The notes beneath the pieces are model-generated. The model had not been told where the DNA came from and made no database searches. It was given only the letters and a program-made list of their open reading frames with translations. Of a DNA stretch of 64,000 nucleotides, positions 47,913 to 61,886 are shown piece by piece. The translations under genes were made by a program, and so were the position numbers. The DNA lies in NCBI GenBank assembly GCA_965267575.1, contig OZ254086.1, positions 608,001 to 672,000 of the forward strand. The letters are read 5' to 3'. The stretch is from Calditrichales bacterium. GTDB lineage: Bacteria > Calditrichota > Calditrichia > Calditrichales > J004. Within the stretch, counting starts at the first letter, position 1; each line of letters starts with the position of its first letter.

Positions 47913-49039
47913 AAAACCTCCGCCGCCCTGTCAAGCGTCTCATCCTTTTTGGCAAAACAGAGGCGTATCACCTTATGGTCATCCCTGTTGCGGTAAAAGA
48001 CCGATGTGGGAATGGTGGCAATCTTGTGTTCCCGCGTAAGTCTTTCACAAAATGCACGATCGTTTTCGTCGCTGATGCCGGCATAGCTGAGCAATTGGAA
48101 ATAAGTTCCGGCACAGGGTAAAACCTTAAAGCGCGATTGCTGCAGCTGCCCGGCGATACGGTCGCGCTTTTGCTGGTAAAAGTGCGCCAGTTCGAGGTAG
48201 TGGTTTTCGTCTTTCAGCATTTCCGCGTAAGCGTGCTGGCTTGGCGCGTGTACGGAAAAAACTATGAACTGGTGAATTTTGCGCAGTTCTTTGGTCAATT
48301 CAACAGGGGCCAAGCAGTAGCCTACTTTCCAGCCGGTGGCATGGAACGTTTTGCCGAACGAGCTGATCACGAAACTGCGCTCAGCCAGCTCCGGGTAACG
48401 TGCCAGGCTGAGGTGTTTCTGCCCGTCAAAGACGATGTGTTCATAAACCTCGTCGGCGATCAGCACAATATTTGTATTGCGGGTGATCGCAATCAGTTGC
48501 CGGATGTCGCTATCGCCCAGCACGGCGCCTGCCGGATTGTGCGGATTGTTTAGAATAATGGCCCGTGTTTTTGGTGAGATTGCCTTTTTCAGGGCATCCC
48601 AATCAATGCCGTAGCGCGGCGGCATAAGCGGCACGGTTACCACTTTGCCAGCGCTGTATTCAACCGTAGGAATATAGATGTCATACCACGGCTCAAAAAC
48701 AATCACTTCATCTCCCGGATGCACGGTTGCCGTTATGGCGGCATACAGTGCTTCGGTTGCGCCCGATGTTACGGTGACTTCAGTTTCCATGTCGTAACGC
48801 GCGCCGTACAGCTTTTCCGTTTTAATGGCAATTTGCTCGCGCAGTTGAGGAATGCCCGGCATGGGCGCGTATTGATTGTGCCCTTCCCTGATGGCCGCCG
48901 AAATCAACTCGCTCATCCGCCGATTTATGTCAAAATCGGGGAAGCCCTGGGAGAGATTCAAAGCATCGTGCTTGTGGGACAGCGCCGTCATAACGGCAAA
49001 AATGCTGGTTTGCAGGTTCGGCTGTTTGGATGTGATCAT
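47900..49039 (-). CDS. PLP-dependent methionine/aromatic aminotransferase (YbdL-like)
   Basis: NLSQGFPDF, NPHNP, DEVYEH, SSFGKTFHATGWK. Confidence 0.92.
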   Translation of the reverse strand: MITSKQPNLQTSIFAVMTALSHKHDALNLSQGFPDFDINRRMSELISAAIREGHNQYAPMPGIPQLREQIAIKTEKLYGARYDMETEVTVTSGATEALYAAITATVHPGDEVIVFEPWYDIYIPTVEYSAGKVVTVPLMPPRYGIDWDALKKAISPKTRAIILNNPHNPAGAVLGDSDIRQLIAITRNTNIVLIADEVYEHIVFDGQKHLSLARYPELAERSFVISSFGKTFHATGWKVGYCLAPVELTKELRKIHQFIVFSVHAPSQHAYAEMLKDENHYLELAHFYQQKRDRIAGQLQQSRFKVLPCAGTYFQLLSYAGISDENDRAFCERLTREHKIATIPTSVFYRNRDDHKVIRLCFAKKDETLDRAAEVLCRI

Positions 49040-49045
49040 AAGGAT

Positions 49046-49077
49046 GTGCTATGGTGTTTAGGTGTTAGTGTGTTAAA
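49046..49077. repeat. Orphan octamer tandem array, GTGTTA family (4 units)
   Basis: gtgctatg gtgtttag gtgttagt gtgttaaa. Confidence 0.75.
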
Positions 49078-49099
49078 GTTGTGCCCGGCAAATATAACA

Positions 49100-49135
49100 A
49101 TTCTTGATCATGATCATGCTCGTGATCATGCTCTT
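49100..49135. repeat. Hexamer tandem array (GMTCNT)
   Basis: attctt gatcat gatcat gctcgt gatcat gctctt. Confidence 0.75.
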
Positions 49136-49152
49136 ATTATTCTCTGTCAGAA

Positions 49153-49181
49153 GATCCCGGCGCGGTTGCCGGGATGACAGG
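49153..49181. repeat. REP-like palindrome, copy 1
   Basis: GATCCCGGCGC-ggtt-GCCGGGATGACAGG; 25/29 nt identical to 53129-53157. Confidence 0.85.
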
Positions 49182-49234
49182 AATCTGGAGCGAAATAAAT
49201 TGCGCCTTAGTGGCAAAATGCTCCGGCTTGGCTT

Positions 49235-49666
49235 TTAATCCGCCGGTTCCTTTGCCAGCAGAAAAGTGCCTGCCTCAAATATATAAAACATCAGCCAAAA
49301 AGCGGAAACACCGCGCAGTTTTTTGTAGCCGGGGGTCAAATCAACCCAGCCGGAGCCTTCCGCGGATGTGGCAAGCACGTAGCCAAAATTGAGCACAGCA
49401 TATACCGCGATAAAGACAATCAAATATTTAAACCATTGCGGCCAGAGACGCCAGGCGATTTTCCAGGGGTTAACGGCAGGTTCACTTTCGGCAAGTTCTT
49501 TAATGCGTTTGCTGCCATCCATCCAGGCCAGCAGCATGGCGATGGTGAGGGGGAAGGAAAGTGCCAAAGGCGGATGATAAAGATCCAAAGCAATCGACAT
49601 ATGAAAAAAAAGGCTGACTGCAGCTAAAACTACAGCCAGCCCCAAAAGCGGGTGTATCGACTTCAT
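49235..49666 (-). CDS. Hypothetical integral membrane protein
   Basis: About 4 hydrophobic segments; start overlaps the stop of the rhodanese gene. Confidence 0.7.
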   Translation of the reverse strand: MKSIHPLLGLAVVLAAVSLFFHMSIALDLYHPPLALSFPLTIAMLLAWMDGSKRIKELAESEPAVNPWKIAWRLWPQWFKYLIVFIAVYAVLNFGYVLATSAEGSGWVDLTPGYKKLRGVSAFWLMFYIFEAGTFLLAKEPAD

Positions 49667-49977
49667 TACCCCTCTTCCACGGGATTTTGGGCTTCATGCC
49701 AATCGATGATCCCTCCGTGCAGGTTCATCAGGTTGCCGTAGCCGTGTGCCGACAATTGCGCCAGCAAATAGGCGCTGCGGCTGCCGCTGCGACAATAAAC
49801 AACGGCATCGGTTTCCTTTGGCAACTCCTGCAGACGGCTGTTCATCTGGCTCATCGGGATAAGCCGCGCGCCGGGGATGCGTACCTGGTCAAACTCCTCC
49901 GGCTCGCGGATGTCGATGAACTCGATACCTTTGTCGAAGGCCTCACGGGCCTGCTCGACACTTATATTTTTAAACAT
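49666..49977 (-). CDS. Rhodanese-like sulfurtransferase
   Basis: IDIREPEEF..RIPGA, active loop YCRSGSRS, NLHGGI. Confidence 0.92.
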   Translation of the reverse strand: MFKNISVEQAREAFDKGIEFIDIREPEEFDQVRIPGARLIPMSQMNSRLQELPKETDAVVYCRSGSRSAYLLAQLSAHGYGNLMNLHGGIIDWHEAQNPVEEG

Positions 49978-50033
49978 ATTTTGCGCTCCACATTTTCTTT
50001 AAACGCTTATTAAATGATAAAGCGCAAAAGAGG

Positions 50034-51410
50034 TTACAAATCTTTAACCTGTTTAACGAGATCGGTAACCATACCCTTGGCGTCGCCAAACAGCATCATC
50101 GTCTTTTCATCATAGAACAGCTCGTTGTCCTCTCCGGCAAAACCGGCAGAAAGGCTACGTTTGATGATCATGACGCGGCGCGCTTTATCCACGTTGAGGA
50201 TCGGCATGCCGTAAAGGGCGCTGCCTTTTTTGTAACGCGCGGCCGGGTTGATAACATCGTTGGCACCGATAACCAGGGCCACGTCGGTCTCCTGGAATTC
50301 ATCATTGATCTCGTCCATCTCTTTCAGCATTTCGTAAGGCACGTTGGCCTCTGCCAGAAGCACGTTCATGTGTCCCGGCATGCGTCCCGCCACCGGGTGG
50401 ATGGCGTAACTGACTTTAACGCCCTGTTTCATCAGCAAGGTGGCCAGTTCCTGCAGCACGTGCTGGGCCTGGGCAACCGCCAGACCGTAACCCGGAACGA
50501 TGATTACCGATTCACTGCCGTCAAATATCATGGCCGCGTCTTCGGCGGTGTAGCGCGTAACGCTGGCTTTATCACGGCCACCGGTGCCTGTGCTGTCATC
50601 GGAGCCAACCGCGCCGAACAGCACGTTGGCCAGCGAGCGGTTCATGGCCACACACATGATGTTGGTCAGGATCAATCCCGACGCACCTACCAGCGCACCG
50701 GCAATAATCAGAATGTTGTTGGACAGCACAAAACCGGTCGCGGCGGCAGCCAAACCGGAGTAGCTGTTAAGCAGTGAAATAACCACCGGCATATCTGCGC
50801 CGCCAATCGGAATAACCGAGGTAACACCCAGGATAGCGGCCAGGACAACGATGGCAATCAACAATTCCTGCTGTGTGGTATCCATGGCAAACAGACCAAT
50901 TAAGGCGGCCATGACAATAACCACCAGCGCGTTAAACACGGTTTGACCCTTAAAGGTAATCGGCGCGCCGCGCATAATGCCCTGCAATTTTGCGAACGCA
51001 ATAATGGAGCCGGTAAAGGTAAGTACACCGATCATCAAACTGAGGCCGGTGGAAACCGATACGTCTGTGCCAAAAATCTGGAAGCCGCCGTTAACATATT
51101 CGGCGTAAGCCACAAAGGCCGAAGCGATACCGCCGAAGCCATTAAATAAAGCAACCATCTGCGGCATATCGGTCATGGCTACTTTTTTGGCAGCAATAGC
51201 ACCTACGCCGGCACCGACAATCAAACCGACAATGATATATGTAAAATCGAGGATCCCCTGGTCGAGCAGGGTAATTACGATGGCCAGCAGCATGGCGATC
51301 ATGGCCAGCAGGTTACCGCGGCGGGCTGTTTTGGGCGAACCCAGGTTTTTAAGCCCAAGGATAAAAAGAATCGCCGCAACGAGATATACGATATTTGTAA
51401 TAGCAGCCAT
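50034..51410 (-). CDS. pntB: NAD(P)+ transhydrogenase beta subunit
   Basis: IGGADMPVVISLLNSYSG, IHPVAGRMPGHMNVLLAEA. Confidence 0.97.
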   Translation of the reverse strand: MAAITNIVYLVAAILFILGLKNLGSPKTARRGNLLAMIAMLLAIVITLLDQGILDFTYIIVGLIVGAGVGAIAAKKVAMTDMPQMVALFNGFGGIASAFVAYAEYVNGGFQIFGTDVSVSTGLSLMIGVLTFTGSIIAFAKLQGIMRGAPITFKGQTVFNALVVIVMAALIGLFAMDTTQQELLIAIVVLAAILGVTSVIPIGGADMPVVISLLNSYSGLAAAATGFVLSNNILIIAGALVGASGLILTNIMCVAMNRSLANVLFGAVGSDDSTGTGGRDKASVTRYTAEDAAMIFDGSESVIIVPGYGLAVAQAQHVLQELATLLMKQGVKVSYAIHPVAGRMPGHMNVLLAEANVPYEMLKEMDEINDEFQETDVALVIGANDVINPAARYKKGSALYGMPILNVDKARRVMIIKRSLSAGFAGEDNELFYDEKTMMLFGDAKGMVTDLVKQVKDL

Positions 51411-51712
51411 TATTTAGCCTCCTTGCCTTTTTCTTTACCCTTAAACATGCCCAGCATGCGGTCCGTAACCATAAAGCCGCCCACCACGTTTATGGTAGCG
51501 GTAATAATGGCCAGCATACCAAGTATTATACCAAGATTTGTTTCACCCATGCCCGTACTCAGCAGCGCACCCACGATTGTAATACCGGAGATGGCGTTGG
51601 AGCCGGACATCAGCGGTGTGTGCAGCAAGGGAGGTACTTTTGTTATCACCTCAAAGCCGACAAAAATGGCCAGAACAAAAATATAAACCGAAACCAGAAT
51701 CATATCATTCAT
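51410..51712 (-). CDS. pntAB: NAD(P)+ transhydrogenase alpha subunit part 2 (membrane)
   Basis: LHTPLMSGSNAISG, GGFMVTDRML. Confidence 0.95.
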   Translation of the reverse strand: MNDMILVSVYIFVLAIFVGFEVITKVPPLLHTPLMSGSNAISGITIVGALLSTGMGETNLGIILGMLAIITATINVVGGFMVTDRMLGMFKGKEKGKEAK

Positions 51713-51768
51713 GACATTTTTCCTTTTGTTTAATCCCGGAATCCATTGGACATATCAGGAATCAGGAG

Positions 51769-52914
51769 TTATTTGACAATATCCGCAACCACTTTATTTA
51801 CGATTTCGCCGTCCTTTACAACACAGGCGCCTTTAGTCACTTCATCATCCCAGGTGACGCCTTCGTTGCCAAAGATATTCTGGAACAGATTGGTAATATT
51901 TTTGGAATACATCTGGCTGGAGTGAACGGGAAGCTTTGTGGCCAGGTTTACCGCGCCAATGACGGTTACACCGTGCTTCTCAACCGTCTTATCTTTTTCC
52001 GTGATAGCGGTGTTGCCGCCCTGTTCCGAGGCGATGTCCACGATGACCGATCCCGGTTTCATCTGTTGCAGCATTTCTTCCGTGATCAGGATGGGCGCTG
52101 CCTTGCCAAATACCTGTGCCGTGGTAATCACCACATCAATTTTGGGCAGGCGCCCGCCGATGGCCTCCTGCTCTTTATTCAGAAATTCATCGCTCATTTC
52201 CTTGGCATAACCGCCTTCGGTTTCGGCGTCTTCGGGCATTTCCATTTCAACAAATCGCGCGCCCAGCGACTCCACCTGTTCTTTAACAGCTGCGCGCGGG
52301 TCGAATGCCTCTACTTTGGCGCCCAGCCTTTTGGAGGTAGCGATGGCCTGCAATCCCGCAACACCGGCGCCCAGCACAAGCACGTTGGCCGGTGAAACGG
52401 TTCCCGCGGCCGTCATCAGCATCGGGAACATCTTTGGCAGGTGGTCCGCTGCGATGAGCACCGCCTTATACCCGGCAATGGTTGCCATGGAGCTTAACGC
52501 ATCCATGCTTTGGGCGCGGGTAATACGCGGCACAAAACCCATATCGAAAGCGGTTACCTTCCGGCCGGTAAGCTTTTTGACATTGTCCGCATTTTGCGTG
52601 GGATGCAAAAATGTAATCAGGATAGCGCCCTCTTTCAGCGCTTCCGCTTCGTGCTTGCCCAGCGTGCTGTTCTCCTGCGGCGGCGCTACTTTCAGCACAA
52701 CGTCACATTCGGCAAAAAGCTTTTTGGCATCGGAGACAATTTCCGCGCCGGCCTTTTTGTACTGGTCGTCGCCGAATCCGGAAGCGACGCCGGCACCGCT
52801 TTCCAGCAGCACCTGGTTGTTGTTCTCTTTGCCTGTTAAAACCTTGATCATGGATGGGACGACGGCAACCCGTGTCTCATTCGGAGCAATCTCGCGAGGT
52901 ATGCCAATCTTCAT
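51769..52914 (-). CDS. pntAA: NAD(P)+ transhydrogenase alpha subunit part 1 (soluble dI)
   Basis: PRITRAQSMDALSS, GAGVAGLQAI, GGYAKE. Confidence 0.96.
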   Translation of the reverse strand: MKIGIPREIAPNETRVAVVPSMIKVLTGKENNNQVLLESGAGVASGFGDDQYKKAGAEIVSDAKKLFAECDVVLKVAPPQENSTLGKHEAEALKEGAILITFLHPTQNADNVKKLTGRKVTAFDMGFVPRITRAQSMDALSSMATIAGYKAVLIAADHLPKMFPMLMTAAGTVSPANVLVLGAGVAGLQAIATSKRLGAKVEAFDPRAAVKEQVESLGARFVEMEMPEDAETEGGYAKEMSDEFLNKEQEAIGGRLPKIDVVITTAQVFGKAAPILITEEMLQQMKPGSVIVDIASEQGGNTAITEKDKTVEKHGVTVIGAVNLATKLPVHSSQMYSKNITNLFQNIFGNEGVTWDDEVTKGACVVKDGEIVNKVVADIVK

Positions 52915-53020
52915 GTGGCCTCCCTTAATACGTCCGTGGTTAAATTAGAGTACACTACAATGCGTAGTTTACGAAACATAAACCGTCATTTTCAAGGAAG
53001 ATTTGATTTCTTTTTAAGAG

Positions 53021-53091
53021 GCAGAATGGAATTGGGCAGAATAGGTATTAAGAATAGTTGAATTATGGAATTATTGAAGCGGTGAGTTTCG
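53021..53091. repeat. Degenerate GAAT-core tandem array
   Basis: gcagaat at 53021 and 53036, then period-8 units gaatagtt gaattatg gaattatt gaagcggt gagtttcg. Confidence 0.55.
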
Positions 53092-53128
53092 TGGGGCGTC
53101 CGAGCTGTCTTGATGGTTTTAGTCGGTG

Positions 53129-53157
53129 GATCCCGGCGCACAGGCCGGGATGACAGG
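53129..53157. repeat. REP-like palindrome, copy 2
   Basis: GATCCCGGCGC-acag-GCCGGGATGACAGG. Confidence 0.85.
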
Positions 53158-53165
53158 TAAGTGCC

Positions 53166-53205
53166 TAAGACGTCCAGACTCCAGGACACCATGACTTCAA
53201 GACCT
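53166..53205. repeat. Octamer array, GAC family (5 units)
   Basis: taagacgt ccagactc caggacac catgactt caagacct. Confidence 0.85.
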
Positions 53206-53210
53206 TATTC

Positions 53211-55169
53211 TTAAACACTGTTCCTGATCGCCTCCACCGTCGCCGGGTTTTCAAGGCTGCTGACATCGCCGGTGGGCTGGCCGAGGTAGGCGGCGCGGAT
53301 AAGGCGGCGCATCACCTTGGCGTTGCGGGTTTTGGGCAGGGCGGTAGTAAAACGTATCTCTTTGGGCTTCAGCGCTTTGCCCAGGCCGTCCGTAACGCGA
53401 TCCATTAATGCCTTGCGCAGGTCTTCCGTAATTTCCACGCCTTCCTTCAGCACGCAAAAGCCCACAACGGCGTTGTCCTTTTTAGGGTCGGGGACGGCTA
53501 TGGCAGCGGATTCCACCACGGAGGGATGGGCGTTCAGCAGCGCTTCCACTTCCGCCGGGCCCAGCCTTTTGCCGGCCACTTTGATCGTGTCATCGCTGCG
53601 GCCCAGGATGTACCACAAGCCGTCCTTGTCGATGGCGGCAAAGTCGCCGTGCAGCCATACGTTGTCAAAACGGCTCCAGTAAGTATCGATGTAGCGCTGC
53701 TCGTCTTTCCAGAAACCGCGGGTCATACCAATCCACGGTTGGCGGATCACCAGCTCGCCGACGGCGCCGCGCAAGGGTTTGCCATTCTCATCCACCACAT
53801 CGGCGGCCATACCCGGCACCGGCCCGGAAAAGGCGCAGGGTTTCAGCGGTTTGAAAAAATTGCCGCAAACAATACCGCCGCTGATCTCCGTACCACCGGA
53901 GTAATTCAAAATAGGCTTGCGCTTTTCCAGCACATTCTCAAACAGCCACATCCACGATTCCGGATCCCAGGGGCTGCCGGTGCTGCCCACCATACGCAGG
54001 CTGCCCAGGTCGTGTTTGCGCAAAATGTCGCTGCCCTTGTCCTTCAACGCGCGTATCAGCGTGGGCGAAACACCGAGATGCGTCACCTTGTGTTTTTCGA
54101 TAAGCTGCCACAGGCGGCTGTGGTGCGGGTGATCCGGAGCGCCGTCATAAAACAGCATCGATGCGCCAATCGACAGCGAGCCGAACACTTCCCACGGCCC
54201 CATCATCCAGCCCATATCGGTCATCCAGTACATCACCTCGCCGCGTTTCAGGTCCATGCAGTGGTACATGTCCTGTGCGCCTTTAATCGGAAATCCGCAG
54301 TGGGTGTGGACGGCGCCCTTGGGCTTGCCGGTGGTGCCGCTGGTATAAATAATCATGCAGACATCTTCGGCGGAGGTTTTCTCCGTTTCGGCCCGGTCGC
54401 TTTGTCCGGGCACCAGCTTATTCCAAAAATGGTCACGGTTATTTGTCATCGGGCAATCTTCACGTCCGGCGCGACGCACAACAACCTGGTGTTTCACTGT
54501 GGGACAATCGGCGAGCGCTTCATCTGCAGTTTCCTTCATCGGCACCAGCTTGCCGCGACGAAAGGCACCGTCGGCGGAGAACAACGCTTTGGCCCCGGCA
54601 TCATTCAGCCGCGTGGCAATCGCCGAGGCGCCATAGCCACTGAAAAGGGGCAAAATGATTCCGCCAATTTTAATAATAGCCAAAAAGGCAATGGCGAGCT
54701 CGGGAATCATCGGCATGTACAAGCCCACCGCGTCGCCTTTTTTCAGGCCCAGTTCACGCAGGGCGTTGGCGCAGCGGCATACATCGCGATGCAATTCACG
54801 GTAAGTCCATGTTTTGCTGTTGCCCTCTTCACTTTCGTAGCGCAGGGCCACGGTATCAGCTACCTCGGTTTGCTGCCATTTGTCCAGAAGGTTGTGCACG
54901 ATGTTCATGCGGCCGCCGACACACCACTCAGGCCGCTGAATGCCAATTTTCAGATCGACGATTTTTTTATAGGGCGTGTAAAATTCGATGTCCAGGTCTT
55001 TCAATGCCGCATCCCAGAACCAGGCGATATCATCGGTGCTGCGGCGCATCAGTTCGTCATAATCCTTTACGCCATTATTTTCCATAAAGCGCTGCAGATT
55101 GCTTTCCACTATCCACCGTTTATTGGGTTGCCACACGATTTTTTGTCCAAATGGAAAATTTTGGGGCAT
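53211..55169 (-). CDS. Acyl-CoA synthetase (acetate/acetoacetate-CoA ligase family)
   Basis: Start set to MPQNFPF (AAGGA RBS); YTSGTTGKPKG, SGGTE, GRSDD, LPKTRNAK. Confidence 0.9.
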   Translation of the reverse strand: MPQNFPFGQKIVWQPNKRWIVESNLQRFMENNGVKDYDELMRRSTDDIAWFWDAALKDLDIEFYTPYKKIVDLKIGIQRPEWCVGGRMNIVHNLLDKWQQTEVADTVALRYESEEGNSKTWTYRELHRDVCRCANALRELGLKKGDAVGLYMPMIPELAIAFLAIIKIGGIILPLFSGYGASAIATRLNDAGAKALFSADGAFRRGKLVPMKETADEALADCPTVKHQVVVRRAGREDCPMTNNRDHFWNKLVPGQSDRAETEKTSAEDVCMIIYTSGTTGKPKGAVHTHCGFPIKGAQDMYHCMDLKRGEVMYWMTDMGWMMGPWEVFGSLSIGASMLFYDGAPDHPHHSRLWQLIEKHKVTHLGVSPTLIRALKDKGSDILRKHDLGSLRMVGSTGSPWDPESWMWLFENVLEKRKPILNYSGGTEISGGIVCGNFFKPLKPCAFSGPVPGMAADVVDENGKPLRGAVGELVIRQPWIGMTRGFWKDEQRYIDTYWSRFDNVWLHGDFAAIDKDGLWYILGRSDDTIKVAGKRLGPAEVEALLNAHPSVVESAAIAVPDPKKDNAVVGFCVLKEGVEITEDLRKALMDRVTDGLGKALKPKEIRFTTALPKTRNAKVMRRLIRAAYLGQPTGDVSSLENPATVEAIRNSV

Positions 55170-55187
55170 GAGTGATCCTTTGTTTTC

Positions 55188-55259
55188 GGTCTGGAAGTCT
55201 CGAGGTCGGGGAGTCCTGAGGTCGAGTAGTACTGAAGTCTTTTTGTCCGCCAGTCGCCA
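55188..55259. repeat. Octamer array, GAC family in inverted (GTC) orientation (9 units)
   Basis: ggtctgga agtctcga ggtcgggg agtcctga ggtcgagt agtactga agtctttt tgtccgcc agtcgcca. Confidence 0.85.
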
Positions 55260-55260
55260 T

Positions 55261-55300
55261 CTCGGCTTCAAAACCACAAGACTTCATGACCTCATGACTT
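55261..55300. repeat. Octamer array, GAC family (5 units, first two degenerate)
   Basis: ctcggctt caaaacca caagactt catgacct catgactt. Confidence 0.75.
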
Positions 55301-55716
55301 TAAACTATTCTTCCGAAATTTTCATAGCTATAATTAGTATCGCTTACAAAATCATTATTTTTTAAATAATTGATCAATCCCAGTATTTTCGTGCTGCATA
55401 ATTCAGCTTTTTCCTTTAGCCGCACAAATTCGTCTTGGCTGATATATTCACAATCCAAAACGATATAAAGAAGACTTCTAAACTCCATAAGGGAACCATC
55501 AGCAATAGTTAAAAACCGTTTAAACTCTTTATCGGAATAACGCCCAAAGCCTTCTCCAATATTGGCCATGACAGATATCGCCGCTCTGCGAACCTGATCG
55601 GATAAAGCAAAATCTGTTTTCAACTTTGTGCTATTGTTAATCGAATAAATATCTTGGACCAACTCTCTTGCGAGTTGCCAGCATTTCAGCTCTTCAAAGT
55701 TTTTAACTGTCGCCAT
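55300..55716 (-). CDS. Four helix bundle protein (23S rRNA IVP / TIGR02436-like family)
   Basis: FEELKCWQ, LSDQVRRAAISVMANIGEGFGR, EFKRFL.IA.GSL.E signature; AT-rich. Confidence 0.92.
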   Translation of the reverse strand: MATVKNFEELKCWQLARELVQDIYSINNSTKLKTDFALSDQVRRAAISVMANIGEGFGRYSDKEFKRFLTIADGSLMEFRSLLYIVLDCEYISQDEFVRLKEKAELCSTKILGLINYLKNNDFVSDTNYSYENFGRIV

Positions 55717-55736
55717 TTAAGACCCCCAAATGTAAT

Positions 55737-55784
55737 CCTGACTGCAAGACTCCAAGACCTCCGGACTTCAAGACTTCTCGACAG
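55737..55784. repeat. Octamer array, GAC family (6 units)
   Basis: cctgactg caagactc caagacct ccggactt caagactt ctcgacag. Confidence 0.88.
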
Positions 55785-55786
55785 TT

Positions 55787-56407
55787 TCACGGCCTATACG
55801 GCTTACGAATCAGCTTAAATCTCTCACCTAATTTCGTGTACTCAGCACCGGCCAGGCGACCGATGGGACGCAGCTTACCAGTATCGATGCGGCCGTTTTC
55901 CAGCAGCTCATCGGCCACATGGAACATGACAATCTCACCGATTACCAGGAAGCCGCCACCGGCCTGGGGCTTACCTATTTCAACGATTTGATACAGCTTG
56001 CACTCAAAATGTATCGGCGACTCTTTGACCAACGGCGCTTTGACGACCTCAGCCTTTACCGGCGTTAAGCCGGATTGCTCAAACTCGTCAATCTCCGGGG
56101 GAAACTCCGTGGCGCAATCGTTCATTGGCTCGGCAATCTCTTCCGTTACGATGTTGACGACGAACTCACCGGTGGCTTCAATATTGCTCAGTGTGTCCTT
56201 ACGTTCACCGTCCGTGCCGCGCCGCGTGGGGCAAAAACAAATCGTCGGCGGATCGGAGGTGATGCCGGTAAAAAAGGAGAAGGGCGCCAGGTTGTATTGC
56301 CCATTTTTGGAAACAGTAGAAACGAAGGCGATCGGTCGCGGCAAAATGCTGCCGATCATCAGTTTATAATTTTCTTTATAGGTTTGTTTTTTGGGATCTA
56401 TTATCAT
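55787..56407 (-). CDS. Flavin reductase-like FMN-binding protein
   Basis: Start set to MIIDPKK; PRPIAFVST, NLAPFSFF, KDTLSNIEATGEFVVN, GRLAG. Confidence 0.88.
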   Translation of the reverse strand: MIIDPKKQTYKENYKLMIGSILPRPIAFVSTVSKNGQYNLAPFSFFTGITSDPPTICFCPTRRGTDGERKDTLSNIEATGEFVVNIVTEEIAEPMNDCATEFPPEIDEFEQSGLTPVKAEVVKAPLVKESPIHFECKLYQIVEIGKPQAGGGFLVIGEIVMFHVADELLENGRIDTGKLRPIGRLAGAEYTKLGERFKLIRKPYRP

Positions 56408-56435
56408 TTTGTGCTTACCATTCAGTTCCACAGAA

Positions 56436-57593
56436 TTAGTCTTCGAGCCAGCTGTAGGGGTAATTTCCATCCTCCACTTCTTCGGCGTCTTTGGCAATAT
56501 TTAAGGGCCGGAATGTATCCAGCATCACCGCGTATTCATCGGTTTCCTTCGCGCCGATGGAGCCTTCATATTTTCCTGGATGCGGCCCGTGCGGCAACCC
56601 CGCGGGGTGTATGGTAATCGAGCCTTCGGAAACGCCTTTGCGGCTCATGAAATCGCCTTCCCAGTAGTAGAGCACCTCTTCGCTGTCCACGTTGCTGTGG
56701 GCGTAGGGCGCGGGGATCGATTTCTCGTGGTAGTCAAACAATCGCGGTACAAAGGAGCAAATGACAAAGCCGGGACCGGCAAAGGTTTGATGCACGGGTG
56801 GCGGCTGGTGAATCTTGCCCGTTATGGGCATAAAATCCCGGATGTTAAAAATCCAGGGATAGTAGAAGCCATCCCAGCCAACGACGTCGCAGGGGTTGTG
56901 GGCCAGCACATATTCCTGGATGCCCCGTTGCACACGCACCATGATGCGGAAGTCGCCTTTTTCATCTTTGGCAGCAGCAAAATCCGGCGTGCGGATATCG
57001 CGCTCGCAAAACGGGGCGTGCTCCATCAACTGGCCGAACTTGTTGAAATAACGCTTGGGCGGCGCCACCGGTCCAAAGGATTCGATGATCAGAAAGCGCG
57101 TGTCGCCGGTCTGGTAATGCAGCTTGTACAACGCCCCGCCGGGGATCATGATGTAGTCGCCTTCATGAAATGGCAACTGCCCGAACTGGCTTTCCAGCAT
57201 ACCCTTGCCTTTGTCCACAAAAATCACCTCGTCGGCGTGGGCGTTGCGGTAATAAAAGTCGGCTTCGTCCGCGGGCCGGCAGGTGGACATAATGACATCC
57301 TTGTTGTAGGCCAGAATGCGGCGCCCGCTGACCCAGTTGCCCTTGGGGTCAAATTTGTGCGTCTCCAAATGACGGTGGCGGTGGGTTTCATCGCTGCCGG
57401 GTAATATATGCACCGGGTGCAGCGGTCCCACTTTTTTCACCCGCGTTGGCGGATAAATATGGTACATATTGGAATAGGTGTCGGAAAAGCCCTCACGGCT
57501 CACCAGCTCTTCATAACGCAGATTATTTTTTTCATCGCGATGCTGCGTATGCCGTTTCTGCGGCACATCGCCCAGTTTTTTGTAGTAAGGCAT
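56436..57593 (-). CDS. hmgA: Homogentisate 1,2-dioxygenase
   Basis: DVVGWDG, HQPPPVHQTF, PYAHSNVDSEEVLYY, PHGPHPG, AVMLDTF. Confidence 0.93.
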   Translation of the reverse strand: MPYYKKLGDVPQKRHTQHRDEKNNLRYEELVSREGFSDTYSNMYHIYPPTRVKKVGPLHPVHILPGSDETHRHRHLETHKFDPKGNWVSGRRILAYNKDVIMSTCRPADEADFYYRNAHADEVIFVDKGKGMLESQFGQLPFHEGDYIMIPGGALYKLHYQTGDTRFLIIESFGPVAPPKRYFNKFGQLMEHAPFCERDIRTPDFAAAKDEKGDFRIMVRVQRGIQEYVLAHNPCDVVGWDGFYYPWIFNIRDFMPITGKIHQPPPVHQTFAGPGFVICSFVPRLFDYHEKSIPAPYAHSNVDSEEVLYYWEGDFMSRKGVSEGSITIHPAGLPHGPHPGKYEGSIGAKETDEYAVMLDTFRPLNIAKDAEEVEDGNYPYSWLED

Positions 57594-57604
57594 GTCCTCT
57601 CCTC

Positions 57605-57640
57605 GTGTTAGGGTACTAGTGTGCTAAAGTGTTAATGTGC
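57605..57640. repeat. Octamer array, GTGTTA family (left arm)
   Basis: gtgttagg gtactagt gtgctaaa gtgttaat gtgc. Confidence 0.85.
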
Positions 57641-57647
57641 GCGGAGA

Positions 57648-58076
57648 TTATTGCAACTCGTTTGCTTCGCTTGCATCATAAAACACTTCAACGTCACTTA
57701 CACCGTCACTTTTACGATTTTTTAAATATTTTAATAGTCCGAGAATACGATTTCGGCAAAGGTCAATTTCATCAGAGAGCGATTCAAAATCGGCATCCGT
57801 TAATATTTTTAAATCTAAAACGATATAGGCCTGGCTTTTTAATTCTGATAATGAACTCTGCGCCATATTGAGGAAGTGAATAAATTCCTTGACGTTGTAG
57901 CGTGCAAAACCCTCCGCGATATTGCTCATAGCGGAAACAGCGGCTCGCCGCATTTGATCCGCCAGTGAATACTTCCTGTCAGTCATTAGTGGTTCAGTGA
58001 TCATGTATATTCGTTTTGTTAAAAACCTACAGCCTTGCCAGGCCTTTAAATCTTCGAAACGCTTAACTATTGCCAA
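57648..58076 (-). CDS. Four helix bundle protein (23S rRNA IVP / TIGR02436-like family)
   Basis: FEDLKAWQ, LADQMRRAAVSAMSNIAEGFAR, EFIHFL. AGGAGG spacing favours the TTG start at 58076 (alternative ATG 58079). AT-rich. Confidence 0.92.
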   Translation of the reverse strand: MAIVKRFEDLKAWQGCRFLTKRIYMITEPLMTDRKYSLADQMRRAAVSAMSNIAEGFARYNVKEFIHFLNMAQSSLSELKSQAYIVLDLKILTDADFESLSDEIDLCRNRILGLLKYLKNRKSDGVSDVEVFYDASEANELQ

Positions 58077-58091
58077 CATAGCCTCCTATAT

Positions 58092-58135
58092 GCACACTAA
58101 CACATTAACACTCTAACACTATAACACAATAGCAC
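58092..58135. repeat. Octamer array, TAACAC family (right arm, inverted relative to 57605-57640)
   Basis: gcac actaacac attaacac tctaacac tataacac aatagcac. Confidence 0.9.
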
Positions 58136-58139
58136 TTTC

Positions 58140-59066
58140 TCACCTGCTCACCTTCTGCTCCAGTAGGCCCAGGCCTTCGATTTCAAGTGTGATGGTGTCG
58201 CCGGGTTCAAGCCAGCCGTTAGTGTTTTCGGGGCGCAGCTCCAAAATGCAGCCGCTGCCCACGGTGCCGGAACCGAGAAGGTCTCCGGGGTAAAGGTCCG
58301 CGTCCTGTGAGGCACGGGCAATCATTTCACCAAAAGAATAGTGTATTTCCGACCAGTTGCCGTCGGAGATCAGCTGACCGTTTTTACGGGCGGTCATGCG
58401 TAAATCGTAGCCTTTGTTTTTTTCCTTTCCTTTTAATTCATCGGCAGTCACAAGAAATGGCCCCAGACCCGTGGCAAAATCCTTGCCCTTAGCCGGACCC
58501 AAACCCACGCGCATTTCGCGGCGTTGCAGATCGCGTGCGGACCAGTCATTCAAAACGCAGTAGCCCGCAATATAATTGGCAGATTCTCCAGCTTTAATGT
58601 TGCGACCTCGCTTTCCAATGATACAGCCAATCTCAAGCTCAAAATCCAACTCCGCGGTTGCCTGCGGCTTTTTGATAGTCGCCTTGTGGCCATAAAGCGC
58701 ATGGGGATTTGAAAAATAGAAAACCGGTATCTCGTACCATTCGGGCACTACGTCAAGGTCACGCAAAGCCCGGGCCGTTTTTACATGGCGCTCGAAAGCA
58801 TAGAAGTCGCGAAAATTGGCCGGACGCAGGAGCGGTGGCAGGAAATGAATCTCGCTTTCATTGAGAAGCGCGTCTGCCACAGGCTGCGTTTGCAATTCTT
58901 CAAGTTCCTGAAAACCGGCCGGCCAGTCACGCAAAGCGTCGTCCACACTAAAAGGAACGGCCTGCCGGCCGGCAGCCAGTTTCATCGCATCGTATAGCTG
59001 CCCGCCGATCGCCAATCCAAGACGTACTTCCGCGTAATCGGGCAGCGCATAGTTAAATAACTTCAT
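58140..59066 (-). CDS. Fumarylacetoacetate hydrolase family protein
   Basis: FRDFYAFERH, LDFELE, NDWSARDLQ, KGKDF, GSGTVG. Confidence 0.92.
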   Translation of the reverse strand: MKLFNYALPDYAEVRLGLAIGGQLYDAMKLAAGRQAVPFSVDDALRDWPAGFQELEELQTQPVADALLNESEIHFLPPLLRPANFRDFYAFERHVKTARALRDLDVVPEWYEIPVFYFSNPHALYGHKATIKKPQATAELDFELEIGCIIGKRGRNIKAGESANYIAGYCVLNDWSARDLQRREMRVGLGPAKGKDFATGLGPFLVTADELKGKEKNKGYDLRMTARKNGQLISDGNWSEIHYSFGEMIARASQDADLYPGDLLGSGTVGSGCILELRPENTNGWLEPGDTITLEIEGLGLLEQKVSR

Positions 59067-59099
59067 CTGCTGTCCTCATTTATCGGGTAATGGAATTGT

Positions 59100-60191
59100 C
59101 TAGAGGTTCCCGCGGCGTTCCTGCTCGCGCTCGATCGACTCAAACAGGGCCTTGAAATTGCCCTTGCCAAATCCGGACGCGCCTTTGCGCTGGATGATCT
59201 CATAAAACAGAGTCGGGCGATCCTGGATGGGTTTAGTGAATATCTGCAGCAGGTAGCCGAATTGATCCTTGTCCACCAAAATGCCCAGCTTGGCGAGATC
59301 TTCTATGTTCTCGTCGATTTCGGGCACCCGTTCCGGCAGTTCGTCATAGTAGGTCCTGGGAACTTCCAGAAACTCGACGCCATTTTCGGCCAGGCGGCCA
59401 ACGGTGTGAACAATATTGTTGGTGTCAAAAGCGATATGCTGAATACCCGGTCCGCCGTAAAACTCTACAAATTCCTCGATTTGCGATTTGCGAAGACCGG
59501 CGGCAGGACGGTTTATCGGCATCTTCAAACGCTCGTTTTCGTTGGCCACAACAATGGAACGCAGGGCCGAATATTTTGTGGAAATGTCCTTGTCATCGGC
59601 GCTCCAGAAGCGGTGCCAGCCAAACACGTGCTCGTACCACTCTGCCGTTTTCTGCATTTGGTTTTCCGGTTGGTTGCCAACAAAGTGATCCACAAAATTT
59701 AGGCCGACAGGATTAATATTCAGAGGGCTGGTGCGTGGCTCATAGCCGGGCATGAAAGCGCCTTTGTAATTATCACGCTGTACAAAGCTGTGCACCGTAT
59801 CTCCGTACGTTTTGATCGTCGCGATGATCACTTCGCCGTTTTCGTCTTTCAAGCGCTTTGGCTCCTGTACGGACTCAGCACCGCGTTCGGTAACATATTT
59901 CCAGGCGCCTTCCGCGTTATTGGTCCAGAAAGCCACATCGCGTACGCCGTCGCCGTGCTTTACCAGATGCTCGTTCAGCGGGGAATCGTCTTTATAGGGG
60001 GTACTTAAAACAATCCGTACTTTATTTTGCTGAAGCATGTAAGACGCATGATCACGGTTGCCCGTCTCAAGACCGGAATAAGCTTTCAGTTCAAATCCGA
60101 ACTGCTGCATATAGTAAAAAGCGGACTGACGGGCATTGCCCACAATGAGGTGGATATGATCCGTCCCCATAAATTCAAAATCTGCCTTCAT
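59100..60191 (-). CDS. hppD: 4-hydroxyphenylpyruvate dioxygenase
   Basis: HGDGV, DHFVGN, GIQHIAF, LLQIFT, GFGKGNFKALFESIEREQ. Confidence 0.96.
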   Translation of the reverse strand: MKADFEFMGTDHIHLIVGNARQSAFYYMQQFGFELKAYSGLETGNRDHASYMLQQNKVRIVLSTPYKDDSPLNEHLVKHGDGVRDVAFWTNNAEGAWKYVTERGAESVQEPKRLKDENGEVIIATIKTYGDTVHSFVQRDNYKGAFMPGYEPRTSPLNINPVGLNFVDHFVGNQPENQMQKTAEWYEHVFGWHRFWSADDKDISTKYSALRSIVVANENERLKMPINRPAAGLRKSQIEEFVEFYGGPGIQHIAFDTNNIVHTVGRLAENGVEFLEVPRTYYDELPERVPEIDENIEDLAKLGILVDKDQFGYLLQIFTKPIQDRPTLFYEIIQRKGASGFGKGNFKALFESIEREQERRGNL

Positions 60192-60482
60192 AGGTCATTC
60201 TCCTTCATTTTTCTTTCGCGCCTAATATACAAAAATGGCCGTTTCAGTCTAATTGCCCCACAGAACGTCCATTGCGGTAATTGCACGGACAGGTTGGGAA
60301 TGCGCAAAACGACACCGAAAGTTTTTGTACCGGCCGGGCTTATTGGCAGAAAAAAATTTCATCCGCCTTGCAGCTTTGCGTTTTGTGCCTCGTGCATTAC
60401 TCTCATCATCCGAAAAACCCGTTGGTAGGGCGGTTTTTCTTTTGTAAATTTCATGCTTGCTATTTAAACGGGTGTTTTAAAT

Positions 60483-61886
60483 ATGAAACGACTAAAACTG
60501 CTTATTTCAATCCTGCTGCCCCTTTTGCTTTTGGCGATACCAACCACCAGTATCCCTATTGACGGGCTTTCCGTGGTGGAACACCGTGTACTTGCCCTGT
60601 TTTTACTGGCTACGCTTTTCTGGGTGCTGGAACCGATCCCGATTTTCGCGACATCTATTCTGATCATTATGCTGGAATTATTGCTGATATCCGACAACAG
60701 TCTGGCTTTTTTGCAAACGGGCGAAAACCTGGGAACCCTGTTGAGCTACAAAGCAATCATGGGTACGCTGGCCTCACCGATCATTCTGCTATTCCTGGGT
60801 GGCTTTAGCCTGGCCATGGCAGCCACAAAATACAATCTTGATATAAACCTGGCGCGCGTTCTGTTAAGGCCCTTTGGCCGGAAACCGCGTTACCTGCTGC
60901 TGGGCCTGATGGCCATTACCGCGCTCTTTTCCATGTTTATGAGCAACACTGCCACCACGGCGATGATGCTGGCCATTCTGGCACCGGTACTGGGCGTCAT
61001 TCAACGCGATGACCCGGGCAGGATTGCCTTCCTTCTTGGGATTCCATTTGCCGCTAACATCGGCGGTATCGGCACACCGATAGGCACGCCGCCCAACGCC
61101 GTGGCCATGAAATACCTGATCGGCGACAGCACCGTTTCTTTTTCGCAATGGATGGCCTTTGCCCTGCCCTACGCGCTGATCATGCTGGCCATTGTCTGGT
61201 TCTTGCTGCTCACCCTCTTTAAGCCAAAAACAGATAAGCTGGAGCTGGTAATCAAAAACCGTTTTATGTGCAGTCCGAAAGCGATCACCGTATACATTAC
61301 TTTTGCCGCCACCGTTTTAATGTGGATTTTAACCGACCTGCACGGCATAAATTCCTACGTGGTGGCCATGGCGCCGTTAACGGTGTTTCTGGTCAGCGGT
61401 GTCATTAACGCAGAGGATATCAAAAAATTTAACTGGGATGTTTTATGGCTTATTGCCGGCGGTATCGCCCTCGGCATGGCGATGGAACAAAGCGGGCTCT
61501 CGGCCAACCTAATAGCCAGCATCCCCTTTGAAACATTCAGCCCTTATGTGATTGTTTTTACGGCCACGCTGCTGGCTGTGCTGATGGCCACGTTCATGTC
61601 CAACACGGCCACGGCCAACCTGCTGCTTCCGCTTATGGCCGCGCTGGGCGCCAACCTGGGTACGCTGAGCACATTGGGCGGCAGCAAAATGCTGATTATC
61701 GCGGTTACAATTTCATGTTCGATTGCCATGAGCCTGCCGGTAAGCACGCCGCCAAACGCTATGGCCTATGCCAGCGGCGGCATTAAAACAAGCCAGATGA
61801 TGAAGGGCGGTGCAATCATTGGCGTGATTGCCCTTATTTTTGTGTATCTTTTAATGTGGATACTGAGAACGGTTAATTTTCTATGA
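60483..61886 (+). CDS. SLC13/DASS family Na+:anion (dicarboxylate/sulfate) symporter
   Basis: Two MSNTAT and two (G/S)TPPNA motifs; many TM segments. Confidence 0.92.
   Translation: MKRLKLLISILLPLLLLAIPTTSIPIDGLSVVEHRVLALFLLATLFWVLEPIPIFATSILIIMLELLLISDNSLAFLQTGENLGTLLSYKAIMGTLASPIILLFLGGFSLAMAATKYNLDINLARVLLRPFGRKPRYLLLGLMAITALFSMFMSNTATTAMMLAILAPVLGVIQRDDPGRIAFLLGIPFAANIGGIGTPIGTPPNAVAMKYLIGDSTVSFSQWMAFALPYALIMLAIVWFLLLTLFKPKTDKLELVIKNRFMCSPKAITVYITFAATVLMWILTDLHGINSYVVAMAPLTVFLVSGVINAEDIKKFNWDVLWLIAGGIALGMAMEQSGLSANLIASIPFETFSPYVIVFTATLLAVLMATFMSNTATANLLLPLMAALGANLGTLSTLGGSKMLIIAVTISCSIAMSLPVSTPPNAMAYASGGIKTSQMMKGGAIIGVIALIFVYLLMWILRTVNFL

Follow-up and report, generated by a model that had tools for sequence, protein, structure and literature searches.

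A four-helix-bundle gene in a probable hairpin cassette of the intervening-sequence type between fah and hmgA of a Calditrichales bacterium

Introduction

Since about 1990, neither the origin nor the function of the intervening sequences (IVS) in bacterial 23S rRNA, with the S23p or four-helix-bundle (4HB) open reading frame (ORF) that they can carry, has been generally agreed upon, according to the accessible sections of a study of Coxiella (PMC4990558). In Coxiella itself, excision of the S23p-bearing IVS, which has a 28-bp stem, by RNase III was demonstrated experimentally (PMC4990558, same sections). Genes annotated as 23S_rRNA_IVP have been reported within cas operons, one example lying between cmr3 and cmr2 (PMC3936711, accessible text), and in rRNA insertions of Candidate Phyla Radiation (CPR) bacteria (bioRxiv 10.1101/2024.02.27.582315, accessible text). 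PF05635, the family in question, is very large and its role is unknown. Here we describe one of its members, four-helix-bundle gene 2 (HB2), which lies within positions 57605-58135 of a 64,000-nt stretch of DNA from a Calditrichales bacterium (the window), enclosed by inverted octamer arrays in the spacer between the protein-coding genes fah and hmgA.

The window corresponds to positions 608001-672000 of contig C1 of genome G000, which consists of 4.73 Mb in a single contig, with 49.6% G+C and 98% completeness. In a sequence search, the relatives of the hmgA of the window came from Calditrichaceae, Caldithrix and Calditrichia assemblies. The repeat and tandem-repeat passages of the C. abyssi genome paper mention an 18-nt palindrome only (PMC5317091). 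We found no literature describing repeat-array arms around 4HB members outside rRNA, in a search of mainly open-access articles.

Results and discussion

A four-helix-bundle gene between complementary octamer arms

HB2 matched the profiles PF05635 (E 6.8e-31, 107.1 bits with a cut-off of 33.8, profile positions 1-103 of 106) and TIGR02436 (E 4.3e-29, 100.9 bits with a cut-off of 24). It also matched the solved relative PDB 2GSC over residues 8-122 (E 9.3e-18), a sequence match from which a four-helix-bundle fold is predicted. The conserved motif of PF05635/TIGR02436 is given as GxxRxxxSxxxNxxE in the accessible text of PMC3936711. The RxxxSxxxNxxE part was present in the translations of HB2 (RAAVSAMSNIAE) and of HB1 (RAAISVMANIGE), a second 4HB gene in the same operon, and the leading G was absent in both.

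The inverted-repeat search placed 36-nt arms at 57605-57640 and 58092-58127, separated by 451 nt and complementary at 28 of the 36 positions (78%). Tandem Repeats Finder (TRF) reported an array with a period of 8 nt and 4.5 copies at 58093-58128. Because both arms are arrays of an 8-nt unit, a register offset by one octamer (57605-57639 with 58101-58135) paired almost equally well, with 74% complementarity. On the minus strand, which is the sense strand, the 36 aligned positions comprised 28 Watson-Crick pairs, four G-U pairs, one A-C and three other mismatches. Hence the arms that the initial annotation had reported around the gene were recovered with the same complementarity and coordinates, and its remark that several mismatches become G-U pairs on the minus strand was borne out at this stem.

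In the predicted fold of the minus-strand RNA of 57590-58145 (556 nt), the long-range stem was closed in both the minimum free energy (MFE) and the centroid structures, with approximately 34 bp in helices of 8, 7, 7 and 12 bp and small internal loops between them. Thirty-two of the 44 bases of the 5' arm paired with the 3' arm at P>0.5 in contexts of 556, 941 and 1541 nt, and the pair probability of the stem was still about 0.7 when 1541 nt were folded. The energy of the sense arm-arm duplex was -41.7 kcal/mol (z -5.2), which none of 500 dinucleotide shuffles equaled, and that of the antisense duplex was -31.6 kcal/mol (z -3.0; 2 of 500 shuffles equally stable). The proposed long imperfect stem looping out the whole gene is therefore also predicted here and, by sequence, the fah stop and the hmgA ribosome binding site (RBS) lie just outside it, as had been suggested.

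Insertion into the fah-hmgA spacer

None of eight other genomes of the same family, whose hmgA genes were 70-71% identical to that of the window, had a 4HB match around hmgA, and we conclude that the arm-gene-arm unit is an insertion into a fah-hmgA spacer of about 50 nt. In four of these eight genomes (loci L228-L231) and in a locus from a metagenome-assembled genome (L033), fah and hmgA were separated by approximately 45-50 nt and the downstream genes flr and acs by approximately 25-50 nt, and both spacers were free of octamers. The core ACGAGG of the hmgA RBS was common to the window, where it directly follows the 3' arm, and to the insert-free spacer of L033.

Two other arrangements were observed around hmgA of relatives. 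In locus L005 (2700-3890), fah and hmgA were separated by an ORF of 1.3 kb that includes hydrophobic stretches, and in L224 the spacers around hmgA held short stretches resembling repeat hairpins without a gene.

We consider it probable that 57605-58135 is a hairpin cassette of the IVS type, carrying a 4HB gene with its own Shine-Dalgarno sequence, that was inserted between fah and hmgA and whose predicted stem loops the gene out. In the operon transcript, the arms would pair into the stem of about 34 bp with the inserted gene in the loop, and the fah stop and the hmgA RBS would be returned to a side-by-side position; since the stem would rejoin them, the insertion would do little harm to the operon. 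By analogy with rRNA IVS, the stem might in addition be a substrate of the host RNase III, which is encoded in G000, and we advance this part only tentatively. A cut by RNase III would divide the operon message and set free an RNA with the 4HB gene as its only cistron. The element is most readily understood as selfish cargo whose packaging lets any transcript, rRNA or mRNA, tolerate it.

Other four-helix-bundle genes of the genome

Four PF05635 genes were found in G000, and inverted arms of short tandem repeats surrounded all four. The arm unit differed for each gene: TAACAC octamers, GACTTC octamers, GAATTGG heptamers and GATCAY hexamers. HB1 and HB2 share 47% protein identity, yet their arm units are unrelated. 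The arms of HB1 were 35-37 nt long and 70-77% complementary in the inverted-repeat search, and an additional short run (55273-55300) can form local pairs with its 3' arm. The fold of 55160-55795 on the minus strand contained a long stem in the MFE and centroid structures (z -2.73), with none of 20 shuffles as good. In the GATCAY cassette, the 3' arm falls within the C-terminal codons of the 4HB gene itself. The sense duplex was 7-21 kcal/mol more stable than the antisense duplex in all four cassettes, with 10 G-U pairs against 2 A-C mismatches.

The hexamer 3' arm of this fourth gene (1528447-1528900 of the contig) is translated as the C-terminal tail DHDQEHDHDQD. The third gene (L003, 4661356-4661733, minus strand) lacks an in-frame ATG, GTG or TTG around its 5' end. 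Right after the GAATTGG arm, an out-of-frame ATG starts a short peptide like the N-termini of relatives, and the gene may be frameshifted.

Recurrence among relatives and co-inheritance of the arms

To follow the arrangement further, 4HB loci were gathered from 30 relatives, from the phylum (with HB2 as the query) and from metagenome contigs. The 146 ORFs positive with the hidden Markov model (HMM) gave 112 usable loci, after 34 had been dropped for having fewer than 150 nt on a side, a duplicate protein or N. Arms were scored by local alignment of the upstream flank with the reverse complement of the downstream flank, with the 95th percentile of 1344 swapped pairs as the cut-off; this score replaced RNAduplex on long flanks, the background of which was noisy. 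Arms above the cut-off were found at 78 of the 112 loci (4 of 4 in G000, 32 of 44 among the phylum loci and 42 of 64 among those from metagenomes), in a sample that is biased to HB2 relatives and Calditrichota and speaks for most of the loci sampled rather than for a family-wide rule. The same-strand control exceeded the cut-off at 12 of 112, and the arms of homologous loci are thus predominantly inverted and not randomly oriented; a random orientation would have told against the initial annotation.

One of these loci (L104) is a 23S rRNA (RF02541, 2473.6 bits) from a genome of the same order. Its insert of approximately 440 nt occupies the loop of a hairpin (model position 1218/1219) and contains a 4HB ORF flanked by octamer arms of the CAAGG and CCTTG types. 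By the E. coli sequence, this hairpin corresponds to helix 45, where the IVS of Coxiella is also located (PMC4990558). The resemblance to the rRNA IVS design noted at the outset has in this locus a concrete counterpart.

Whether related proteins keep related arms was assessed with loci paired such that their outer flanks, the 500 nt outside each arm window, were unrelated. Arms counted as alike when they scored above the 99th percentile seen in pairs with less than 40% protein identity. Arms were alike in 12 of 15 pairs at a protein identity of at least 75%, in 76 of 101 at 60-75%, in 21 of 101 at 50-60%, in 10 of 499 at 40-50% and in 24 of 3512 below 40%; these pairs are non-independent, and the arm windows include non-repeat sequence adjoining the gene. 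The arms thus tend to stay with the 4HB gene when the genomic context changes. Among orthologous loci the unit family was kept while the number of units varied from about 3 to more than 12, and unit variants were matched on both arms (ATAGTC/GACTAT in L153 and L157 vs CTAGTC/GACTAG in L158 and L164).

A rule that 5' arms are always G/T-rich was rejected, as it was true in only 42 of the 78 armed loci. At locus L100 (G009:C18), what looks like a tRNA gene immediately follows the 3' arm of the 4HB gene.

Other genes and loops between inverted repeats

Enclosure was also scored across G000 with crude ORF calls, which took ORFs of 80 aa or longer greedily by length (3831 in all) and gave approximate starts. 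Flank complementarity exceeded the score threshold for 31 of 3830 ORFs. These included three 4HB genes, four of the six GxxExxY PD-(D/E)XK genes (PF13366/TIGR04256), and a GIY-YIG, a DUF559 and an IS200-like Y1 transposase gene. By this measure 3 of the 4 4HB genes were enclosed with crude ORF ends, and 4 of 4 with HMM-defined ends. The GIY-YIG, DUF559 and Y1 transposase genes were flanked by palindromic units, not tandem octamers. Among the other 21 enclosed ORFs, at least two (285477-286457 and 3223491-3224684) were ordinary-looking, bracketed in the opposite polarity by arrays of the neighboring spacers.

The GxxExxY PD-(D/E)XK genes form a second cargo family that shares the hairpin packaging. 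Genes of this family at 2261037-2261414 and 4493963-4494346 on the plus strand and at 804352-804780 and 1404490-1405026 on the minus strand of the contig had hairpins enclosing them or on both sides, with the units CATGAAG/CTTCATG, CGCAAAGA/TCTTTGCG, CACAGAG/CTCTGTG and TGTGATT/AATCACA.

A region of approximately 43 kb (4252938-4295610 of the contig) contained about 20 arrays of GTGACGGG- and GTAACGGG-type octamers, several of them in inverted pairs 240-540 nt apart. The GIY-YIG gene at 4255995-4256288, within this cluster, had arms of 74 nt with 85% complementarity.

Inverted array pairs without a gene also exist in G000, at 1562709/1562855, 1482796/1483025 and 3581894/3582104. A strict ungapped search returned only 13 array pairs and missed HB2 itself, so that its results serve as examples and not as a census. 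Some octamer brackets held just a short loop or a unit resembling repetitive extragenic palindromes (REP), GATCCCGG...CCGGGATGACAG, and many arrays stood alone.

A REP-like unit of the form GATCCCGGCGCGG...CCGGGATGACAG was seen at 49153-49181 of the window and at about 100 other sites of G000, often in the loop between inverted octamer arrays; the pattern GATCCCGG[CT]G gave 100 matches in the genome and CGGGATGACA gave 52. Hexamer arrays of the TGATCA type accompany octamer arrays (window 49105-49133; contig 1528447-1528900).

Pairing at the RNA or DNA level

Several observations weigh against the cassette proposed above, or against its action in RNA. Selection on the sense transcript should leave more G-U than A-C among the mismatches. 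Over the 78 armed loci there were 93 G-U and 79 A-C (p 0.32), and the sense duplex was the more stable in 43 loci and the antisense in 35 (p 0.15), with 18 vs 24 in the metagenome subset; the G-U argument of the initial annotation therefore fails as a general one. Pairing could be selected, or merely homogenized, at the DNA level. When 57590-58145 on the minus strand was assessed as a whole molecule, its fold was unremarkable in the suggested comparison with shuffled sequences (z -1.38; 10 of 100 shuffles as good). HB2 has no close orthologue with which its stem could be compared for covariation: its closest relative in 86 Calditrichota genomes was HB1 at 47%, followed by one at 46%, and metagenome contigs reached at most 51% over partial protein length. 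No arms above the threshold were found at 34 of the 112 sampled 4HB genes, and hairpin packaging is common, not obligatory. The octamers of the cassette occur at about 120 further sites of the genome, and since most of these have no gene in between, the arms may originate from a general pool of repeats or degenerate into it. For Coxiella, the study concluded that S23p is not produced in vivo (PMC4990558, accessible sections).

The sense strand was favored in the Calditrichota subset (25 vs 11, uncorrected p 0.014) as in the four cassettes of G000. This preference is a local hint in G000 and no general proof. Since no sense-strand signal was seen family-wide, a DNA-level palindrome explains the family-wide complementarity equally well, and the element could be a mobile element acting in DNA, with the arms as terminal inverted repeats or single-stranded DNA hairpins that serve its copying or transposition, an enzyme supplied in trans and the RNA stem incidental. 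A DNA palindrome predicts the lack of significant strand asymmetry over the 78 loci; the gene and its arms were found in unrelated contexts, inverted array pairs exist without genes, and the other small genes enclosed in G000 encode nucleases or transposases (the four GxxExxY genes, i.e. PDDEXK_3, and the GIY-YIG, DUF559 and Y1 transposase genes). However, the arm units vary among cassettes, even between HB1 and HB2, so that no single sequence-specific transposase fits, and the cassette contains no transposase. No direct target-site duplication was evident beside the HB2 or HB1 cassette by eye, with no empty site from a close strain to define the junction. The four cassettes of G000 do favor the sense strand, and mobility in DNA would be compatible with pairing in RNA as well. 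On this evidence we regard a purely DNA-level element as unlikely.

Octamer arrays at gene boundaries

Defining an array as at least three cores at 8-nt spacing, we counted 61 TAACAC, 12 GAACAC, 16 GACTTC and 35 AATTCA arrays in G000 (124 in total), against 0-5 for shuffled hexamers. With arrays beside 4HB genes excluded, the sense strand in the 25 nt that follow the stops of the crude ORFs carried the reverse-complement core in 55 cases and the core in 4, and in the 25 nt that precede their starts it carried the core in 29 and the reverse complement in 8. Intergenic regions are in this way bracketed 5'-GTGTTA...TAACAC-3' on either strand, and the HB2 arms fit the rule for fah and hmgA. This fixed polarity at the ends of genes may be connected with the cassettes. 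A perfect array of 12 copies was observed at 2110569-2110666 of the contig.

These counts could mean that the arms are ordinary boundary octamers, GTGTTANN after stops and NNTAACAC before starts, the geometry at HB2 following from the end of fah and the start of hmgA. A third TAACAC array of the window (49046-49075) indeed precedes an unrelated gene, and the arm units of all four G000 cassettes are also present elsewhere in the genome. Enclosure is nevertheless rare among the crude ORFs, yet it includes most of the 4HB and PDDEXK_3 genes, and relatives without the cassette have no octamers in the fah-hmgA spacer. Moreover, arms also accompany 4HB genes from other phyla-level samples and those inside rRNA, and the arms track protein relatedness across contexts. 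We therefore find it highly improbable that boundary octamers account for the arrangement.

Array units and the protein

Arrays might instead be binding sites of a ring-shaped 4HB protein, as an autoregulatory operator or an RNA/DNA packaging signal with one unit per subunit and with pairing secondary. The closest solved relatives, 2GSC and 2RLD, have 5 chains each as deposited, the HB2 arms hold 4-5 units, and arm sequence tracks protein sequence. The 4HB family is related to Avd, a nucleic-acid-handling protein of diversity-generating retroelements (DGR), as indicated by a weak match to NF033474 and by the accessible text of PMC10053308. A fixed five-site arrangement is, however, at odds with unit numbers that differ from one orthologous locus to the next and between the arms of a single locus, and common descent explains the co-variation of arms and protein equally well; such a role for the arrays has little probability in our view. 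The cassette is not a DGR, and retro-mobility through an Avd-like role is unlikely here, with no PF00078 (RVT_1) reverse transcriptase in a whole-genome profile search of the 98%-complete G000, no template/variable repeat pair seen, and a score of HB2 against the Avd equivalog NF033474 (E 4.6e-4, 20.5 bits) far under the cut-off of 80.

Returning to the hairpin cassette, a much broader extension would make such cassettes a general class of mobile genes with RNA-level self-removal by RNase III. The enclosed ring-forming 4HB protein or GxxExxY nuclease would recognize its own fast-evolving arms and promote their copying to new gene boundaries, with the polar arrays as footprints. We consider this extension quite improbable as a whole.

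Operon setting

The operon order on the minus strand is hppD-fah-[4HB]-hmgA-flr-[4HB]-acs, and the operon is one of the homogentisate pathway, with fah and hmgA as genes of tyrosine breakdown (Table 1). Promoter- and terminator-like sites in 55000-60400 were at the level of shuffled sequence (7 vs 6.4 and 8 vs 6.9, respectively), and these counts give no sign for or against a separate transcription unit. Of the sequencing runs screened for 57300-58500, none of RNA was listed as containing it; the four that did were 50-kb contigs identical to the window, perhaps its source, and had no variants, joints or ends there. A search of 48500-60500 against Rfam gave no match at E up to 0.1.

Table 1. 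Features of the fah-hmgA region, listed in the direction of the minus strand. Positions refer to the window.
Feature	Position	Strand	Basis and remarks
hppD	59100-60191	(-)	ORF list
fah	58140-59066	(-)	ORF list, PF01557; TGA stop 58140-58142, just outside the stem
HB2 cassette, 5' arm (sense)	58092-58135	(-)	Inverted-repeat search, TRF; about five octamers GTGTTANN / GTGCTANN; 4 nt past the fah stop
HB2 Shine-Dalgarno AGGAGG	58082-58087	(-)	Sequence; inside the loop, 2 nt before ATG 58077-58079
HB2 (four-helix-bundle gene 2, 143 aa)	57648-58079	(-)	PF05635, TIGR02436 and PDB 2GSC matches
HB2 cassette, 3' arm (sense)	57605-57640	(-)	Inverted-repeat search, motif scan; about four octamers NNTAACAC / NNTAGCAC; ends at the hmgA RBS
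hmgA Shine-Dalgarno GAGGAGAGG	57596-57604	(-)	Read from sequence; directly abuts the 3' arm
hmgA	56436-57593	(-)	ORF list; start codon 57591-57593, just outside the stem
Flavin reductase (flr)	55787-about 56410	(-)	ORF list, profile search
HB1 cassette, 5' arm (sense)	55740-55782	(-)	GAAGTC / GGAGTC octamers, past the flavin-reductase stop; TRF 55740-55777
HB1 (four-helix-bundle gene 1, 138 aa)	55300-55716	(-)	PF05635 E 5.4e-34, 117.1 bits; TIGR02436
HB1 cassette, 3' arm (sense)	55189-55241	(-)	GACTTC / GACCTC octamers; upstream of the probable acs start 55169
Acetoacetyl-CoA-synthetase-like gene (acs)	probable start 55169	(-)	ORF list, profile search

Significance

If it is true that the rRNA IVS is just one landing site of a stem-gene-stem cassette that resides in operon spacers as well, the stem would be a device of the element itself and not a feature of rRNA. 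Operons bearing such cassettes may then be split or re-coupled post-transcriptionally, which would matter for annotation and for the prediction of operons and expression in many phyla. The cassettes would also be simple test objects for the role of the protein, as each offers one gene, two arms and a measurable downstream gene.

Comparison with known systems

Avd of diversity-generating retroelements belongs to a distantly related four-helix-bundle family (PMC10053308, accessible text). REP and REPIN sequences with their REP-associated tyrosine transposase (RAYT) share with the cassettes short hairpin repeats at gene boundaries, some of them around a presumed mover gene; they differ in having a single conserved palindrome that is read by a Y1 transposase, whereas the arms of the cassettes are short tandem arrays of many families and surround a gene whose product is no known transposase.

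Correia repeat enclosed elements (CREE) of Neisseria are gene-less miniature inverted-repeat transposable elements (MITEs) of approximately 100-150 bp with one conserved terminal repeat. They provide the known precedent for hairpin elements that act in mRNAs, and their hairpins are reportedly bound by RNase III and cleaved or protected by it (PMC2649163, accessible text). In contrast, the HB2 cassette carries a gene, and its type of arm consists of tandem octamers of many sequence types.

The ORF-bearing IVS of 23S rRNA, such as that in helix 45 of Coxiella burnetii with S23p and those of Leptospira, resemble the HB2 cassette in their PF05635 ORF, in their size of about 430-530 nt, in their terminal inverted repeats and in an ORF-enclosing stem of about 28-36 bp, and they are regarded as selfish (PMC4990558, accessible sections). 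They differ from HB2 in location, as the cassette lies between protein-coding genes and its transcript is a predicted mRNA, not rRNA; the two 23S genes of G000 itself are 2997 nt long against a model of 2925 positions and contain no large insert. The arms of HB2 and HB1, moreover, are built of tandem 8-nt units that change between cassettes. Excision by RNase III is experimental in Coxiella; here, from mRNA, it is what we infer, and the analogy with IVS is in itself sound, both structurally and phylogenetically.

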